This document shows, one piece after another, positions 18,001 to 24,000 of a stretch of DNA of 64,000 bases. Position numbers: made by a program. The stretch covers positions 448,001 to 512,000 of the forward strand of contig CBDHDG010000005.1 in the NCBI GenBank assembly GCA_965261595.1, given 5' to 3'. Position 1 is the stretch's first letter; every line of letters begins with the position of its first letter. The DNA is from a bacterium. Lineage in GTDB: Bacteria; UBA8248; JACPRG01; G963555815.

Positions 18001-21000
18001 CTTCCTCGGCAAGGTCAACCCGCCGCTCCGCGACACGGTGGACCAGGAAAAGCTTTGGGAGGCCCTTCAGGACGGGACGCTCAACAACATCGGCGCGGAC
18101 CACTCCACCGTCGTCCCCCGGAAAGACAAGGTGGGCGACGGGATCTGGAACGCCATTCCCGGATTCCCGATGACCGGCTGCTCGCTCCCGGTGATGCTCC
18201 ATGTGGCGGTGCACACGGGCCGTCTGACGTTCGAGCGCCTCGTTGAGCTGACCTCGTACAACGTCGCCAAGGCCTACGGGCTGCTCCCGCAAAAAGGGGA
18301 CATCGCCCCCGGATTCGACGCGGACATTGTCCTTGTGGACCTGGAGAAGGTGCGGCACGTGACGCCGGAGATCTGGCACTCCGACGCCGATTGGAGCCTC
18401 TACGATGGTTGGGATCTCAAGGGATGGCCGGTCCGGACGATCGTCCGGGGCGTCACCGTGGCCCTGAACGGCGAGATCACCGGCACGCAGGAACACGGCC
18501 GATACATCCCCCGGAATATTCCGAAGAAGCCGGTGGCCTGAGGAGGGATTTTGTCCGGGCGGGGGTGCGCCCGAGTCACGAGACCGGGTCACCCCCTTCC
18601 GACGATCTTCTCGAACGAGCCGCGCCAGCCGGGCGACAGGGCGGGGATGCGGAGGGCCTTCGCGGCCCCTTCGATGTTCTTCCCGTCGAAGTAGAGCAGG
18701 TGATGGACCGCCTGGACCGTCATGCGCTCGGGGCCGGTTTCGGTCCGCACGATTTCATCGCCCGCGCCGACCTCGCCTTCCTCCAAGACGCGAAGATAGA
18801 ATCCGACCCGCTCGCTTACCAGAAACTGTTTGTGGAATTCCGGCAACCCCATCCGCATACCGAGCTTGAAGCAGGGGACGCGGGGCTGAGTCACTTCGAC
18901 CCGTGCGCCGCCCACTTGGAAGACGTCTCCGATATGGACCGCGTCTTCCGGCATTCCCTCGACGGTGAAGTTTTCACCGAATTGGCCGAATGAAAAATCG
19001 TCGCGGCCGAGCTCGTCCTCCCAGTGGTCGTAATGTTCAATCGTGTAAACGTAGACCGCTTTGTGGATTCCGCCGTGCCCGCTCCGGTCGGCCTGGTCGT
19101 CGCCGTCCAGGTTCAGCGCCCGGAGCATCACGCGGCCCCGGACAGGCTCCTTGAAGATCCACGTGGTTATGATCTTGTCGTTATGCGGGACTTCCAACGC
19201 TGGTGACACATTCACCGAAAGGAGCCTCATTGTTTACCGCCCTCCTTCCCCCCCTCCGCGTTTTCTAATGCTCCCACAGTCATAGACCGAAGAAGAAGAC
19301 AGAGAAAAGGAAGTTTATCGATCTTCAAAACCCGCCGGTTTCTTTATAAGCGAAGAGCCGGCTGGAAAGCCAATCAGTTTTCTTCATGGAGGACATTCCG
19401 GTGAACGGTCGAAAAAGATGTGTTGTCCTGGCGGCGGCCCTCCTGTGTTGGGTTCTGGCCGCGGGATTCTTCACGCCGGGGGGGGCGCCGCCCTCGCCGC
19501 GGCGAATCCCAAGCAAGAGCTGAAGGCGTCCATCGATCGGGTGTTGGACGTATTGAGGGATCCGTCCCTGAAGGGCGATGAGCACCGCAAGGCCCGCAGG
19601 CGCAAGTTGTCCGAGATCATTCAGGCGCGTTTCGATTTCGCGGAAATGGGCAAGCGGTCCCTCGCGCGTCAATGGCGGAAAATGAGTCCCGCGGAAAAAA
19701 AGGAATTCATCGGGATTTTCGGCAACCTCCTGCAAGACTCTTATCTGACCAAGATCGAGGCGTTCGCGGACGAGAAGATTGTTTATCCGGCGGAGCGCAT
19801 GGAAGAGCGATACGCCGAGGTCAAGACCAGGATTGTTCAGAAGAGCGGGCGGGCATCGGCATTGATTACAAACTTCACCGGACTCCGGAAGGTTGGCGCG
19901 TCTACGACTTCGTCATCGAAGGCGTGAGCCTGGTGTCGAATTACCGCAAGCAATTCAAGCGACTGATTCGGAAGACCTCTTACAAGGAGCTGATTGCGCG
20001 TATGAAGGTCAAGTATGAAGAGGTCCGGGGCGGTTCCTACGAGAAGGAAAAAACGCTCTAGGCTGGATTTCTCACCAACGCATCGGGGCGGGTGCGGGAG
20101 TCAACCGACTCTCGCCCCGCCCCTGCATTTCGGGGCTTCTACCATCAAATTCGGTGTAGGGGCCGGGGCTCCGCACCCGCCCCCCTCAAGGACAGGGTGT
20201 TCCACTCCCCTCGGTTTTCATCTCTTGGCCAATCGGTTGATCTTCAAAGAATTTCTCGAAGGAAAACCGCTGAACCGTCCTTACTTGTGAGATATCCAGG
20301 CTAGGGTCGTGTCCCAGAAACATATTCAAAAAAGTTGTCCGCGCCCCCGTCTCATTGCAGGGTTGCGCCTTCAGAAGGACCTTCGGCGCGGAACCGGCTG
20401 AAGGACCCGGACCCCCTTGTCCCTCCGTCATCTCCCTTCCCTCTTCACGGTCTTCGATGGAACGCTGTGGGAAATTTCCGGCGTTCATTTCGCGCGCCGG
20501 CATGCATGGGGATGATTCCTTCAAACGAATTGCTGTATCGTCGAGAGATGAACCCGCCGAAGGATAAACACCAGAAACCATGATCACCGTCCACATGGAT
20601 GTCGTCGGAAGCCTCCTCAGACCCCCGGAGCTGCTGGGGGCGCGGGAAGACGCGGCCGGGGGGAGGCTCTCGCGGGCCGGGCTCAAGGCAGCCGAGGACC
20701 GGGCGGTGGATGCGGCCGTTGTCCTTCAGGAGAAAGCCGGGCTGGCCGTCGTCACCGACGGGGAAATGCGGCGGCTCTCCTTCCAGTCTCAGATGACCGA
20801 GGCGGTGGAGGGGTTCGGGGAGTGCGGCATCGACGCCTTTCTCTGGGGGGACTGGCGCGGCGATGAAAGGGTCGGGGACAAGGAGATCCGGCGGCCGGCG
20901 TCGCTGGGCGTCGTGGGCAGGCTTCAGCGCAAGCGCCACCTCTCGGCCGAGGAGTTCACGGTCCTTCGCGCGATCACGAGGGGAAAGCCCCTCATTCCCA

Positions 21001-24000
21001 AAGTCACCCTTCCCAGCCCGAGTCTCTGGATGAACTTTTGGCCGACGGATCGCCGGGTGGACGCCTATCCGACCCTCGACTCCTTCCTGGCCGACGTCGT
21101 GGATATCCTGCGCGGCGAGGTCGCCGAGCTCGTCCGGTTGGGCGCGACGTACATCCAGATCGACGCGCCCCAATACACGGCCGCGCTGGACCCGAAAGGC
21201 CGGGCCTTTTACGAGTCCCGGGGTTGGAGTGGGGGGGAGAGGGGGGAGGAATGGCTGTCGCGGGGGATCGAGATGGACAACGCCGTCATGGACGGCTTCC
21301 CGGACGTCACCTTCGGCTTTCACCTCTGACGGGGGAACCAGGCCAGCCGGTGGCTGGCCGAGGGCGGCTACGGCCGCATCGCCCGGACCGTTTTCCGGGG
21401 CGTCCGCGCCCAGCGCCTCCTACTCGAATACGACGACGAGCGCTCCGGCGGTTTCGAGCCGCTCAAAGACGCGCCCGAGGACAAGACCGTCGTCCTGGGT
21501 CTTGTCACGACCAAATCGTCCCGCCCGGAGACGGTGGAAGGGCTCTCCGCCCGCGTCCGGGAGGCCGCCCGCTACGTTCCGCTCGAACGGCTGGCCCTGA
21601 GCCCCCAGTGCGGGTTCTCCACGTCCGTTGTCGGAAACCGGATCTCCGCGGAAGAGCAGAAGCGGAAGCTGGAGGTGGTCGCCGAAACGGCCGGGGTGGT
21701 TTGGGGGGCCGGATGAACACCCTCAAATGTTTCAAGGCCGGCCGCGTCCCGCACCCGGGAGACGGCCTGTTCGGTCCGGCCGGGTCTACGACTCTCCCCG
21801 GGAAGAGAGAAGGGCGGAGACGCCGAGGGTGATCGCCCCGAGAAACACGGTGTTTGCGAAGTCCAGGTAGGTCGCGGAAGCGACGGACATGAGGAACCCC
21901 GCGCCAAGCCTGGCGATAATTCACAGGATCACGGAAACGGCCCCAATCACGAAACCCGCACAGACCAGATTTTTCATCATCCCTCTCCTGTTTTGTCCAG
22001 CCCCTGGCCAAGGTCACATCTTTGAAGCGGCTTCTTCGAGCCCGCTCATTCTCGTCTATTGCCACCCCGGGTGCCACCCGAATTCCGTACGAATGCCCCT
22101 GATGTACGCGATCTGTCCCGTGTGCTGGGCGATCTCCGACGTCAGCAGGGTGAGCTGTCCGCCCATTGTTTTGAAACCGGCGACCTCGCGCTTCATCTCT
22201 CGGGCGAAATCCGCGTCCGAGCAGGTTTTGAAGAATCGCACCGTTTCCTCCCGAACGGCCGCTTTGTACCCCATGACGGTTTCCAGGTCCGGGATCGTGA
22301 ACGTCCCGGCTTCCTCGGGAGTAAAGCCGTATCCGGTGTATTCGGGGTCGGCCGGCTTGCCGAACCTTTCGTGCCAGCCGCCGGAAATCCAGGCCTGCTC
22401 CCGTTCGTCGAACTTGGAGATGACATAGTCCTCCTCGCGCGACATGTGCCAGAGCATGAACCTGATGGGGTTCACCTTGGGATCGGGCCGGTAGGCCAGG
22501 TCCTCCTCGGTGAGGCCGTTTACGGCGGTTTCCAGGGTGTGTTGGAGCCGGTCGAGGATCTCGATCAAAAATTCAGGGGCTTGCATGTGTGTTGGACCTC
22601 CGAGGAAGGTTTCATCCGGGGCTGTCCTGGGCCGGTGACGCCGCGCCCGATTCGTGGGTCTCGGTTTCCCGGGTCGAGGGACGCCTCCTCCTCCCCCCCC
22701 CTTCTTCGCCCGCTTGGGGAGCTTTGAAATGGAAGCGTTCCGGCGTTGGCTAAGACGCGGCCGAGCGCCTCAAATCCTTGAGGACGAGCTGAAGGCTTTC
22801 CTGTCCGTTCCACCGGTTGACCTCCGGCTCGAACGCGGCGTCTACGAGCTCGCCGGGCCGGTTCAGGAAATCCAGTCTGTCGTCGCTCCCCATGCCGAAA
22901 CCGATGGCCTCCGCCGATTGGCCGGAGGCGGGGTCGTGAAGCTCGATCTTCAGGTGCCGCCCCTCCCGGCCCACCGCCCGGATTCCGCCGACGACCCGCA
23001 ACCCTTCCGCGGCGTAAACCGGACGGGCGTTCCCCGGACCGAAGGGCGCCATTCGCTCGAGGGCCCGCATGGTTTCGAGCGTCAGGTCCGATAGCTCGAC
23101 CCGGCCGTCCAGCTCCAGGGCCGGGACCCCGTCCTCCGGGGCCGTTCGCTCCCGAACGATCTGAGAGAACCGCTCGGCGAACGCCCCCAGGCGCTCGGTC
23201 CGAAGGGTCAGGCCGGCCGCGTGTTGGTGGCCGCCGAAGGTTTCCAGCAGATCGGCGCAATCGGCCAGGGCCTGTTGGAGGTGCAGCGCTCCGGCGGTGC
23301 GGCCCGAGCCCTTTCCGAACGCGCCGTCCAAGGCGATGAGGATGACGGGACAATGAAACTCCTCCGCCACCTTGGAGGCCACGATGCCCAGGACCCCCGG
23401 GTGCCAGCCCGTCCCCCACAGGACGATGGGCCCGTCCCCGTGCGAGCGGCCGGCCGGAACCCGGCGCCGGGCATTCTGATAGACCTCCTCCTGGATGTTC
23501 TGCCGTTCCGCGTTGATCCGGTCCAGCTTCGAGGCCGATTCGGTCGCCCGCGCGAGGTCGGTTTCCAGGAGAAGCTCCAGGGCGAGGTCCGCCTTTCCGA
23601 GCCGCCCGGCGGCGTTGATGCGCGGGGCGATCTGGAAAGCCACCTGGGCGTACCGGAGCGTTGCGTCCGGGCCGTCCGGTTCGGGCGCGGTCCCCGCCAT
23701 GCGGATTAGAGACCGCAGCCCCGGCCGCGTCGATCCGGCAAGCTCGCGGAGACCGTGGCGCAGGAGCACGCGGTTCTCGCCGCGCGTGTCCGCGACGTCG
23801 GCCACCGTCGCCAGGGCGACCAGGTCGAGGGTCCGGCGGAGGTTGGGCAGGGGCTCGGGGCGCCCCGCGTCCCGAAGCGCGCGGCGGAGCGCCGAGACGA
23901 ACTTGAACGCGATCCCCGTTCCGCAGAGCGACTTGTCTGGATACGCGCAGCCGGGCCGGTGCGGATTGACGACGGCGCAGGCGCGGGGCAGAGGGTCCGG

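Follow-up and report, generated by a model that had tools for sequence, protein, structure and literature searches.

Selenoproteins are routinely mis-annotated as truncated or split genes. The locus described here, where two gene calls (g02314 and g02315) are separated by a TGA codon, therefore raises the question of whether it holds one selenoprotein gene and, if so, what selenocysteine (Sec) would do in its product. We analysed the 64,000-nucleotide stretch of DNA surrounding the locus (the window), together with relatives of the gene in other genomes. The reading we consider likely is a single selenoprotein gene encoding a MetE-type barrel, with Sec250 at the zinc site, that would act as an accessory thiol methyltransferase.

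One reading frame across a UGA codon

The first-pass annotation had joined the two calls into one 378-aa gene, and the reading frame bears this out, being open across a single internal TGA (Table 1). The first ORF (20580-21329) is closed by this codon, beyond which the frame stays open until TGA 21714-21716; the earliest in-frame start after the internal TGA is GTG 21534, 68 codons downstream. Read-through translation yields a product of 378 aa that carries FGFHL-U-RGNQASRWL, and its N-terminus (MITVHMDVVGS) agrees with the orthologue consensus MITxHADVVGS. The internal TGA recurs unchanged in nearly identical contigs of two other DNA studies. It is also unchanged in a 250-nt contig from an RNA library that covers 21248-21497 and spans the codon, for which contaminating DNA is a possible source.

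Table 1. Positions of the gene, its internal UGA, the downstream hairpin and the putative active-site codons in the window
Feature	Position	Strand	Description
Whole gene, 378 codons plus terminal TGA	20580..21716	+	Single-domain MetE-like (PF01717); one UGA, probably read through
Ser11 codon (V-G-S)	20610..20612	+	Predicted homocysteine carboxylate-binding position; invariant in alignment A1
Glu62 codon (D-G-E)	20763..20765	+	Predicted homocysteine amino-group-binding position; invariant in A1
Asp195 codon (I-Q-I-D-A-P)	21162..21164	+	Aligned to i-q-v-d-e-p of MetE; invariant in A1
His248 codon	21321..21323	+	Equivalent to zinc ligand His618 of T. maritima MetE; invariant in A1
In-frame TGA, codon 250, probably read as Sec	21327..21329	+	Lies opposite the first Cys of the H-x-C zinc motif
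SECIS-like hairpin GGCCAGCC-GGU-GGCUGGCC	21341..21359	+	8-bp stem, 3-nt apical loop GGU
Glu283 codon	21426..21428	+	Equivalent to zinc ligand Glu642; invariant in A1
Cys344 codon (S-P-Q-C-G-F)	21609..21611	+	Equivalent to zinc ligand Cys704; invariant in A1

The product has a MetE-type fold and a candidate zinc site

The 378-aa product matches PF01717 (Meth_synt_2) with 49.7 bits against a cut-off of 21. Its nearest structure is PDB 1YPX (E 2.1e-47 by sequence, 2.3e-69 by profile), in which HiCRGN lies opposite HlURGN. As had been reported earlier, NCBIfam returned methionine-synthase models only, each under its cut-off. The scores of the best model, NF005085 (218.9 against 313), and of NF004875 (196.8 against 576) place the product outside YxjG/YxjH-type methionine synthase II, so the original label "YxjG/YxjH-like" describes a relative and not a member. 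In the source databases the Cys orthologues carry the name "cobalamin-independent methionine synthase II family". Full-length MetE was rejected as an identification: the product has 378 aa where about 750 would be expected, and TIGR01371 (full-length MetE) gave 24.2 bits against a cut-off of 929.95. An AF2 model folded with Cys at position 250 (pLDDT 87.9, pTM 0.90) had 1YPX, T. maritima MetE (TMq 0.72) and MesD 3RPD as its top Foldseek matches, and shows the TIM-barrel fold of the MetE C-terminal domain.

Zinc is bound in T. maritima MetE by His618, Cys620, Glu642 and Cys704 (from the accessible part of PMC539065) and in E. coli MetE by His641, Cys643, Glu665 and Cys726 (from the accessible part of PMC7857596). 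Judging from profile alignment and the AF2 model, the putative ligands of the product, His, Cys/Sec, Glu and Cys, fall at the equivalent positions. His248 lies inside model strand 244-249, one residue short of its end, Glu283 is the final residue of strand 279-283, and Cys344, aligned to CtNCGMt of MesD 3RPD, stands 2 residues past strand 338-342. The role of H-x-C as the MetE zinc site, given as background in the first-pass annotation, is stated in both papers and supported by the profile alignment and by the model. By homology, Sec250 would coordinate zinc through selenium.

The substrate pocket can be traced in the same way. Ser11 aligns to igsfpqt of C. albicans MetE; in T. maritima MetE, Ser411 (I-G-S) binds the homocysteine carboxylate and Glu462 the amino group (PMC539065, same portion), and Ser and Glu lie 51 residues apart in the product as in T. 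maritima MetE. Asp195 would, by our own mapping, correspond to Asp599 of E. coli, a residue named in the portion of PMC7857596 available. H248, C/U250, E283, C344, S11, E62 and D195 are invariant in alignment A1, which comprises 38 sequences of Sec and Cys forms.

Sec and Cys forms alternate among relatives

The host genome also contains two tandem Cys paralogues (g01743 and g01744), 53-54% identical to the Sec gene, with the motifs HLCRGNNQSKFYA at G000:C4:812379-813467 and HICRGNNQSKFYA at G000:C4:813526-814611. Re-alignment reproduced the pairing of the UGA with Cys both in these paralogues and in 1YPX. Within the window's own lineage, UBA8248, a search of 61 genomes again found three genes with Sec (68-70% identity) and one with Cys (77%). 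Among the best 80 relatives in other species' genomes, codon 250 is TGA in 38 and Cys in 42; relatives of the host genome add two further Sec forms. The mixture of forms described previously therefore stands, while its counts (32 Sec, 35 Cys, 13 unfitted) give way to 38 and 42 with none unfitted; six H-L-C/U-KGN forms account for part of the gap. In homologues the codon-250 UGA always lies opposite Cys, never Trp or Arg. The Sec forms fall under at least 7 phylum-level labels (from record titles), in line with the earlier view that they are widespread over phyla, and the family tree holds at least 15 Sec/Cys exchanges, with starred branches carrying at least 5.

These comparisons bear on the alternative that the locus is a recent pseudogene or a pair of genes, a nonsense mutation having split a Cys-type gene so that a 249-aa fragment or nothing is made. 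Gene callers did split the gene, and its normal stop is also a TGA. However, the same TGA recurs in 38 of the 80 relatives from other species, and the 37 Sec forms checked are all free of a second in-frame stop. The downstream part is conserved as well as the upstream part (identity to relatives 67.0% and 67.5%, respectively), and 10 hand-chosen Sec-Sec pairs differ downstream of the TGA by 376 synonymous against 244 non-synonymous codon differences. Translation could resume no earlier than the distant GTG, and termination at the TGA would forfeit U250, E283 and C344, three of the four zinc-ligand positions. We regard a broken gene as extremely improbable.

Sec machinery and the hairpin after the UGA

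The host genome encodes selA (469 bits) and an adjoining selB (390 bits), a tRNA-SeC with anticodon tca, and a selD that has an in-frame TGA of its own (reading KAGG-U-GSK), giving the set of selA, selB, selD and tRNA-Sec. A hairpin follows the selD UGA at a spacing similar to that in the MetE-like gene. Beyond the host, selB scored above cut-off in 5/5 sampled Sec-form genomes versus 3/5 Cys-form genomes.

Counted from the U of the UGA, the hairpin of the MetE-like gene starts at 14 nt (11 nt past the codon) and its apical loop at 22 nt. Bacterial SECIS elements share a small apical loop with a G, according to the part of PMC1088965 available, and the loop here is of this kind; Rfam gave no match at the hairpin locus. 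The 5-bp stem had been offered as support for Sec. Its pairing holds in the Sec forms, with the five inner pairs formed in 189 of 190 cells (38 Sec rows), but they are also formed in 195 of 210 cells from the 42 Cys rows, and stem conservation alone therefore says little. Mean folding energies are likewise alike (-14.0 in Sec forms, -15.2 in Cys forms). Because the Cys forms keep the inner 4 bp too (42/42), the stem is largely a by-product of the conserved S-R-W-L coding, a protein constraint that the first-pass annotation had acknowledged in part.

Sec forms stand apart in only two features of the hairpin, loop base 2 and pair 5. Loop base 2, the third base of an Arg codon, is G or U in 38/38 Sec rows versus 19/42 Cys rows (Fisher 7e-9, uncorrected for relatedness); three Sec forms identified subsequently also have G there, making 41/41 Sec forms with G or U, and the apical loop is GGU or GUU in every Sec form. 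Pair 5 is kept in 37/38 Sec rows versus 27/42 Cys rows; some of the Sec forms have replaced it by A-U or G-U. A kinship-aware test, underpowered with only 5 independent pairs, found the loop or pair trait in the same direction in 1.0-2.3 of them (median p 0.5-1) and in the opposite direction in 0.0 on average; for the pair-5 trait, a few of the random pairings gave one opposite case.

The UGA might also be read through without Sec, either by a near-cognate tRNA inserting Trp, Cys or Arg or with mixed termination and read-through, the hairpin serving to slow the ribosome. The stem in the Cys forms fits this view to the extent that the hairpin alone is no proof of a SECIS. We nevertheless judge it very unlikely, given selB in every sampled Sec-form genome, a loop base limited to G/U in TGA forms only, the invariable pairing of the UGA with Cys and the decoding of Sec in the host selD.

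Taken together, the comparisons support the reading of the UGA as Sec at the H-x-C position, because the host has Sec machinery and 38 of 80 relatives have a TGA followed by an intact, equally conserved frame, because selB accompanies all five sampled Sec forms in a family with at least 15 Sec/Cys exchanges, and because synonymous hairpin sites show Sec-specific constraint. UGA-250 would be decoded by SelB and tRNA-Sec, aided by the downstream hairpin.

Proposed function

The product is predicted to consist of one (beta-alpha)8 barrel, of the type that forms the MetE catalytic domain, and to do without the folate-binding N-terminal barrel. At a putative zinc site formed by His248, Sec250, Cys344 and a dissociable Glu283, a homocysteine-like amino acid would be bound by the metal through its thiolate (or selenolate) and so activated for methyl transfer in the fashion of MetE. 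Methyl-folate bound in the MetE manner would not be the methyl donor; a corrinoid protein or another small methylated compound is the most likely source, a proposal modelled on the "core" methionine synthases. Replacing Cys with Sec as a ligand could give a softer, more electron-rich metal site and hence a more nucleophilic bound substrate, and could ease the reduction of an oxidised Se-S bridge to Cys344. Since the host genome also encodes MetH (1251.7 bits), the MetE-like selenoprotein would be an accessory methyltransferase and not the sole methionine synthase; no full-length MetE was found in that genome. Comparison of leaders and neighbours found no tie to methionine regulation, with no upstream riboswitch at the window gene or at 11 orthologue loci and no neighbour gene conserved over all loci.

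Alternatively, Sec may be no passive zinc ligand, serving instead in redox or catalysis (as a selenolate that accepts the methyl group, for example, or in an Se-S switch with Cys344), or the protein may act on selenium metabolites in place of homocysteine. Zinc-depleted MetE crystals do contain a disulfide between the two ligand cysteines (PMC539065, accessible part), and selD-like and SenB genes (SenB TIGR04348, 395.8 and 408.7 bits, cut-off 300) stand immediately downstream in 6 Poribacteria Sec loci, as well as beside one further Sec locus and one Cys locus. SenB is present in 6/9 examined Sec-form genomes versus 2/6 Cys-form genomes. This link, however, covers only 8 of 81 loci (a ninth has the selD-like gene alone), may simply track general selenium use, and has no counterpart in the window, where neither a selD-like nor a SenB neighbour occurs. 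Moreover, neither the four zinc-ligand positions nor the three that bind homocysteine vary among the Sec or the Cys forms, which favours one shared zinc chemistry and leaves such an active role for Sec unlikely. It is also rather doubtful that the Sec forms serve the metabolism of small selenium molecules as zinc-selenolate methyltransferases, in cooperation with the SenB/SelD selenosugar cassette that directly follows the gene in Poribacteria and a few other lineages; possible roles would be to methylate a selenol (selenohomocysteine or a selenosugar) or to recycle methyl-selenium compounds. In that case they would be the first natural enzymes to use a catalytic Zn-Se(Sec) bond, and would link the selenoproteome to the selenometabolome.

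Significance

To our knowledge, nearly all known Sec residues either belong to redox motifs or act as ligands of Mo, W or Ni. Sec at the catalytic zinc site of a methyltransferase, the reading preferred here, would if true widen the known uses of selenium. It would represent a hidden Sec branch inside a large Cys enzyme family (at least 8000 protein clusters at E <= 1e-40), and the natural Sec/Cys pair, with its repeated switches, offers a way to ask how selenium affects a zinc-thiolate alkylation centre. The family is probably new. The earlier description "so far unlisted" holds for the sources consulted, among them the 87-family selenoprotein list of a 2022 review, from which the family is absent. 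A further family model would have to be added to selenoprotein catalogues and annotation pipelines.

Comparison with known systems

1YPX (Listeria), PRK06520/PRK06233, Bacillus YxjG/YxjH and Lactobacillus YxjH have the same length as the product and a single barrel. 1YPX aligns end to end (Foldseek TM 0.83 on target) and has H-x-C-RGN and S-P-Q-C-G-F in common with it, whereas the product has Sec for the H-x-C Cys and a Foldseek identity of only 26%. This identity and the NCBIfam scores below cut-off argue that the product forms a separate subfamily, related to YxjG/YxjH-type methionine synthase II. The Lactobacillus yxjH gene is preceded by a methionine T-box (in the part of PMC6004538 available), in contrast to the window gene and the 11 orthologue loci, where none was found.

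With two-barrel MetE (T. maritima, E. coli) the product has in common the catalytic barrel fold (TMq 0.72), the Ser, Glu and Asp positions that bind homocysteine, and the four positions of the zinc ligands, which fall on or close to the ends of strands 5, 6 and 8. It differs in its predicted Sec for the first zinc Cys and in having no N-terminal folate-binding barrel, and should therefore be unable to bind methyl-folate in the manner of MetE. In this it resembles MesA, MesB, MesC and MesD, which are MetE-like proteins of at most about 386 aa that have no folate domain, conserve the zinc and homocysteine residues and use a methyl donor other than methyl-folate (Price et al. 2021, PMC7857596, accessible part). 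MesD 3RPD is only a distant match (E 8.5e-15 by profile), and MesX (PF08908, DUF1852) was not found in the host genome (96.7% complete) by a search that matched no control genome either; close MesD similarity and a MesX partner, which would mark a MesD/MesX system, were thus not found. We know of no report of Sec in any of the four Mes families.

Among in-ORF SECIS genes, those of the selD and fdhF type likewise have a UGA paired with a homologue Cys, and a hairpin with a small G-containing loop directly after the UGA (PMC1088965, available part). Frequent Sec/Cys switching and dependence on selA, selB, selC and selD, the latter predicted here, are further traits common to the MetE-like gene and known bacterial selenoprotein genes. 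The difference from the selD and fdhF type lies in the place of Sec, which in the MetE-like protein would occupy a zinc-ligand position in a methyltransferase instead of a redox motif.

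A MetE-like gene is probably read through an in-frame UGA

On the forward strand of the window, a first ORF runs from the ATG at 20580 to the TGA at 21327-21329, past which the frame remains open for 128 further codons and ends at a second TGA (21714-21716). The earliest possible in-frame start beyond the internal TGA is a GTG at 21534. The read-through product comprises 378 residues and includes VTFGFHL-U-RGNQASRWLAEGGY. The complete protein scores 49.7 bits against Pfam PF01717, the MetE catalytic domain (cut-off 21), and it can be aligned end to end with the Listeria structure 1YPX (E 2.1e-47), placing HiCRGN of 1YPX opposite HlURGN. 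The only NCBIfam models matched are methionine synthases, every one under its cut-off (NF005085, 218.9 versus 313; NF004875, 196.8 versus 576; TIGR01371, 24.2 versus 929.95). The ORF layout together with these matches bears out the first-pass annotation, which had joined the two reading frames into one gene at this location. The best 120 homologous proteins listed were full-length Cys forms only (Cys codon in place of the UGA) and yield no count of truncated Sec forms (TGA at this position).

Contigs from two other DNA studies span the whole 1.5-kb stretch. They carry five substitutions in the gene (two synonymous, three changing residues at variable positions) and one 1-nt insertion upstream of it; the TGA is unchanged in these independent contigs, and an assembly error is therefore excluded. 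RNA runs X15 and X16 cover the gene in part (12/30 and 10/30 bins), and a 250-nt contig from an RNA library (21248-21497) crosses the UGA with one further synonymous difference. Because RNA libraries may contain carried-over DNA, this supports a single transcript for the two halves only weakly.

The host organism decodes Sec. Its genome encodes selA (469.1 bits) and, directly after it on contig C6, selB (389.9 bits), as well as a tRNA-SeC, and a selD (329.9 bits) with a single in-frame TGA at the known motif position, KAGG-U-GSK. The selD hairpin, GGUCC-CGA-GGACC, begins 15 nt past the U of its UGA, a spacing similar to that in the MetE-like gene. Reassignment of TGA throughout the genome is not the explanation, because TGA is also the normal stop of the MetE-like gene and the orthologues end at the same place.

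Locations of features in the window, in the host genome (G000, contigs C4 to C7) and at relatives' loci (L numbers)
Feature	Location	Strand	Remarks
Split MlaC gene	window 19418-20061	+	Upstream of the MetE-like gene; ORF 19418-19927 covers MlaC profile positions 3-112, overlapping-frame ORF 19672-20061 positions 114-165
DinB_2 / mycothiol-transferase-like gene	window 22056-22586	-	176 aa; convergent, downstream; NF047843 128.4 bits, cut-off 170
tRNA-SeC	C6:845075-845171		Anticodon tca
selD	G000:C5:89297-90265	-	Itself a selenoprotein; outside the window
SenB homologue	G000:C7:309970-310902	-	366.8 bits, above cut-off; far from the MetE-like gene
PF01717-type genes and MetH	G000:C4:812379-814611, C6:601516-602439, C6:1236378-1237007, C6:1478890-1482357
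selD-type gene and SenB, Poribacteria	L026:7547-9454		Likewise at L022, L023, L025, L027, L035
SelD fusion and SenB, Thiohalorhabdus MAG	L065:7113-10479		Beside a Cys form
MttB-family methyltransferase	L042:4409-5965		Directly upstream of a Sec-form gene
Predicted zinc-ligand equivalent	His248		Inside model strand 244-249, one residue short of its end
Predicted zinc-ligand equivalent	Sec250		Immediately past strand 244-249
Predicted zinc-ligand equivalent	Glu283		Last residue of strand 279-283
Predicted zinc-ligand equivalent	Cys344		Two residues past strand 338-342

Sec and Cys forms alternate among relatives

The codon aligned with codon 250 is TGA in 38 (Sec forms) and a Cys codon in 42 of the best 80 relatives from other species' genomes (59-75% identity over the best segment). 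The motif reads H-x-U-RGN in 36, H-x-C-RGN in 37, H-L-C-KGN in five and H-L-U-KGN in one, and locus L099 is also a Sec form. By the taxon labels in the record titles, the 38 Sec forms come from Chloroflexota/Dehalococcoidia/Anaerolineales (15), 'Deltaproteobacteria' (7), Poribacteria (6), Binatia (4), Acidobacteria (3), Latescibacterota (1), Desulfobacterales (1) and an unclassified source (1). Of the 61 genomes related to the window's, five have an orthologue: a Sec form in four (the window's own and three others, 68-70% identical) and a Cys form in the fifth (77%). A maximum-likelihood tree, constructed with the trait column masked and rooted on the two Cys paralogues as outgroup, requires no fewer than 15 Sec/Cys changes, of which at least five are forced by well-supported branches.

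These comparisons also bear on whether the locus could be a pseudogene or two genes rather than one. Besides the recurrence of the TGA, the 37 Sec forms checked are all free of further in-frame stops, and identity between the window protein and 37 relatives is 67.5% upstream of the TGA and 67.0% downstream. The region 3' of the TGA shows 376 synonymous versus 244 non-synonymous codon differences in ten Sec-Sec pairs that we picked within Sec clades, and selB scores above cut-off in 5/5 Sec-form genomes sampled across clades and in 3/5 Cys-form genomes. For practical purposes, these results rule out both a pseudogene and two separate genes.

A hairpin downstream of the UGA differs between Sec and Cys forms at sites not dictated by the protein

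The RNA 3' of the UGA folds as GGCCAGCC-GGU-GGCUGGCC (21341-21359), and the 80-nt stretch has a z-score of -2.67 relative to shuffled sequences. The first-pass annotation had suspected that the encoded S-R-W-L peptide forces much of this hairpin, and using the Cys forms as a control confirmed it. The innermost four pairs are formed in 38/38 Sec and 42/42 Cys rows, the five inner pairs in 189/190 Sec versus 195/210 Cys cells, and mean folding energy over the 45 nt past the codon is no better in Sec forms (-14.0 versus -15.2 kcal/mol in Cys forms), with no separation of the two.

The Sec/Cys differences sit at sites that the protein does not dictate. Loop base 2, the Arg-codon third base in the middle of the 3-nt loop, is G or U in 38/38 Sec forms and C or A in 23/42 Cys forms (Fisher 7e-9, a test that ignores relatedness); it is G in three further Sec forms. 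The fifth pair outward from the loop (pair 5) is retained in 37/38 Sec versus 27/42 Cys forms (Fisher p 1.7e-4, again ignoring relatedness), with replacement by A-U in L072 and by G-U in L076 among the Sec forms. In every Sec form Ser is preceded by a residue with a GNN codon (G, A or D), while Cys forms also have His, Met and Val at this position. In an independent-pairs test on the tree, the traits track Sec in 1.0-2.3 pairs and run in the opposite direction in 0.0 on average (once in a few random pairings for the pair-5 trait); with only five usable pairs this test cannot reach significance.

Several Cys forms are nested in Sec clades (Dehalococcoidia loci L061, L063, L067, L064 and L091). 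The first three retain a Sec-type hairpin, with Arg codon CGT and pair 5 intact, and look like recent Sec-to-Cys conversions; L064 and L091 have CGC.

A small apical loop with a G, immediately past the UGA, has been described as the common feature of bacterial SECIS elements (PMC1088965), and a small G-containing apical loop is likewise present here. Against Rfam, the gene and its upstream region had chance-level matches only, and 11 orthologue loci scanned at the gathering threshold yielded one tRNA and nothing else, so neither a riboswitch nor an Rfam SECIS family is indicated. We read the hairpin as a SECIS built into a coding stretch already prone to pairing.

Sec probably occupies a predicted zinc-ligand position

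An AlphaFold2 model based on a 38-sequence alignment (pLDDT 87.9, pTM 0.90) adopts a (beta-alpha)8 barrel most similar in structure to 1YPX, to the C-terminal barrel of Thermotoga maritima MetE (TMq 0.72) and to MesD (3RPD). The zinc ligands of T. maritima MetE, as described in PMC539065, are His618 (last residue of strand 5), Cys620 (following loop), Glu642 (end of strand 6) and Cys704 (loop past strand 8); those of E. coli MetE are given in PMC7857596 as His641, Cys643, Glu665 and Cys726. All four equivalent positions in the MetE-like protein are invariant in the alignment. When the family profile is compared with the zinc-containing MesD structure, hlcrG falls opposite hiCyG and spqcGfa opposite CtNCGMt.

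According to the same papers, the amino-acid end of homocysteine is held in MetE by the Ser of I-G-S, Glu462 and the Asp of the I-Q-x-D-E-P strand. Their counterparts Ser11, Glu62 and Asp195 are invariant, and the Ser-to-Glu spacing of 51 residues is the same as in T. maritima MetE; we infer that the Asp motif corresponds to E. coli Asp599.

The host genome encodes a full-length MetH (1251.7 bits), and full-length MetE was not found in it. Five single-domain PF01717-type genes are present, namely the MetE-like gene and four others that include the two tandem Cys paralogues. Because MetH and these four other genes are present, the selenoprotein is predicted from sequence to be an accessory methyltransferase. 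A search for MesX gave no match in the host genome and likewise none in control genomes.

Gene neighbourhoods

The neighbours within the window bear no relation to methionine or selenium metabolism; recJ also lies downstream on the opposite strand, and the MlaC split is a frameshift or sequencing error. Clustering of flanking ORFs at 81 loci identified no universal neighbour, and synteny is found within clades only (Amidohydro_2, TauE, ETF, MttB and selD-SenB).

SenB is the selenosugar synthase of selenoneine biosynthesis. At six Poribacteria Sec loci a selD-type gene and SenB (TIGR04348, 395.8 bits, cut-off 300) come directly after the gene, and the Cys form of a Thiohalorhabdus MAG has SenB and a pyridine-nucleotide-disulfide-oxidoreductase/SelD fusion downstream of it. 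One Latescibacterota Sec form has a split SenB nearby, and selD is upstream of one Acidiferrobacterales Cys form. SenB is present in 6/9 Sec-form and 2/6 Cys-form genomes examined, and in 12/56 related genomes that have no orthologue; it is above cut-off in 16/61 related genomes searched. This distribution may simply reflect relatedness and the use of selenium in general. In six Chloroflexota loci the orthologue has an MttB-family (PF06253) methyltransferase less than 6 kb away, which could point to a methyl donor derived from methylamine or betaine. We regard the SenB and MttB neighbourhoods as functional leads, not proof.

Discussion

The MetE-like gene is most likely a real selenoprotein gene. 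The family is absent from the 87-family table of a 2022 review (PMC9312934, term search of text and tables), where the same kind of search returns ArsM and Ada as the only methyltransferase selenoproteins. A check of the main texts of deep-Sep 2025 and BSepDB 2026 did not turn it up, and a full-text literature search gave no description of it. NCBIfam release 20 holds no selenoprotein-type model matching the protein, and literature searches on YxjG/YxjH and on Sec with zinc yielded nothing on a natural Sec-zinc site. A preprint on mlp clusters (PMC10418091) deals with different proteins, UroD-family MtaA-like enzymes. The MetE-like Sec proteins are most likely an unlisted family.

A mechanism that draws on the observed gene structure, UGA/Cys pairing, Sec machinery, fold and ligand positions would begin with SelB bringing Sec-tRNA to UGA-250. 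In the protein, the selenolate would hold zinc together with His248 and Cys344, while Glu283 would be the fourth ligand, the one that leaves, and a homocysteine-like thiol or selenol could bind at the zinc and then be methylated. Sec might tune electron density at the zinc, or ease reduction of an oxidised Se-S pair; in MetE that has lost its zinc, the two ligand cysteines form a disulfide (PMC539065).

Compared with MetE, the selenoprotein lacks the N-terminal folate barrel, and it thus resembles the 'core' methionine synthases, which are likewise without it and which, according to PMC7857596, are methylated by corrinoid proteins or by donors yet to be identified as the source of the methyl group they transfer; it is close to none of their four families. 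The system combines ordinary bacterial Sec decoding with a known enzyme fold, and its unusual point is the presence of Sec at a predicted catalytic zinc-ligand position.
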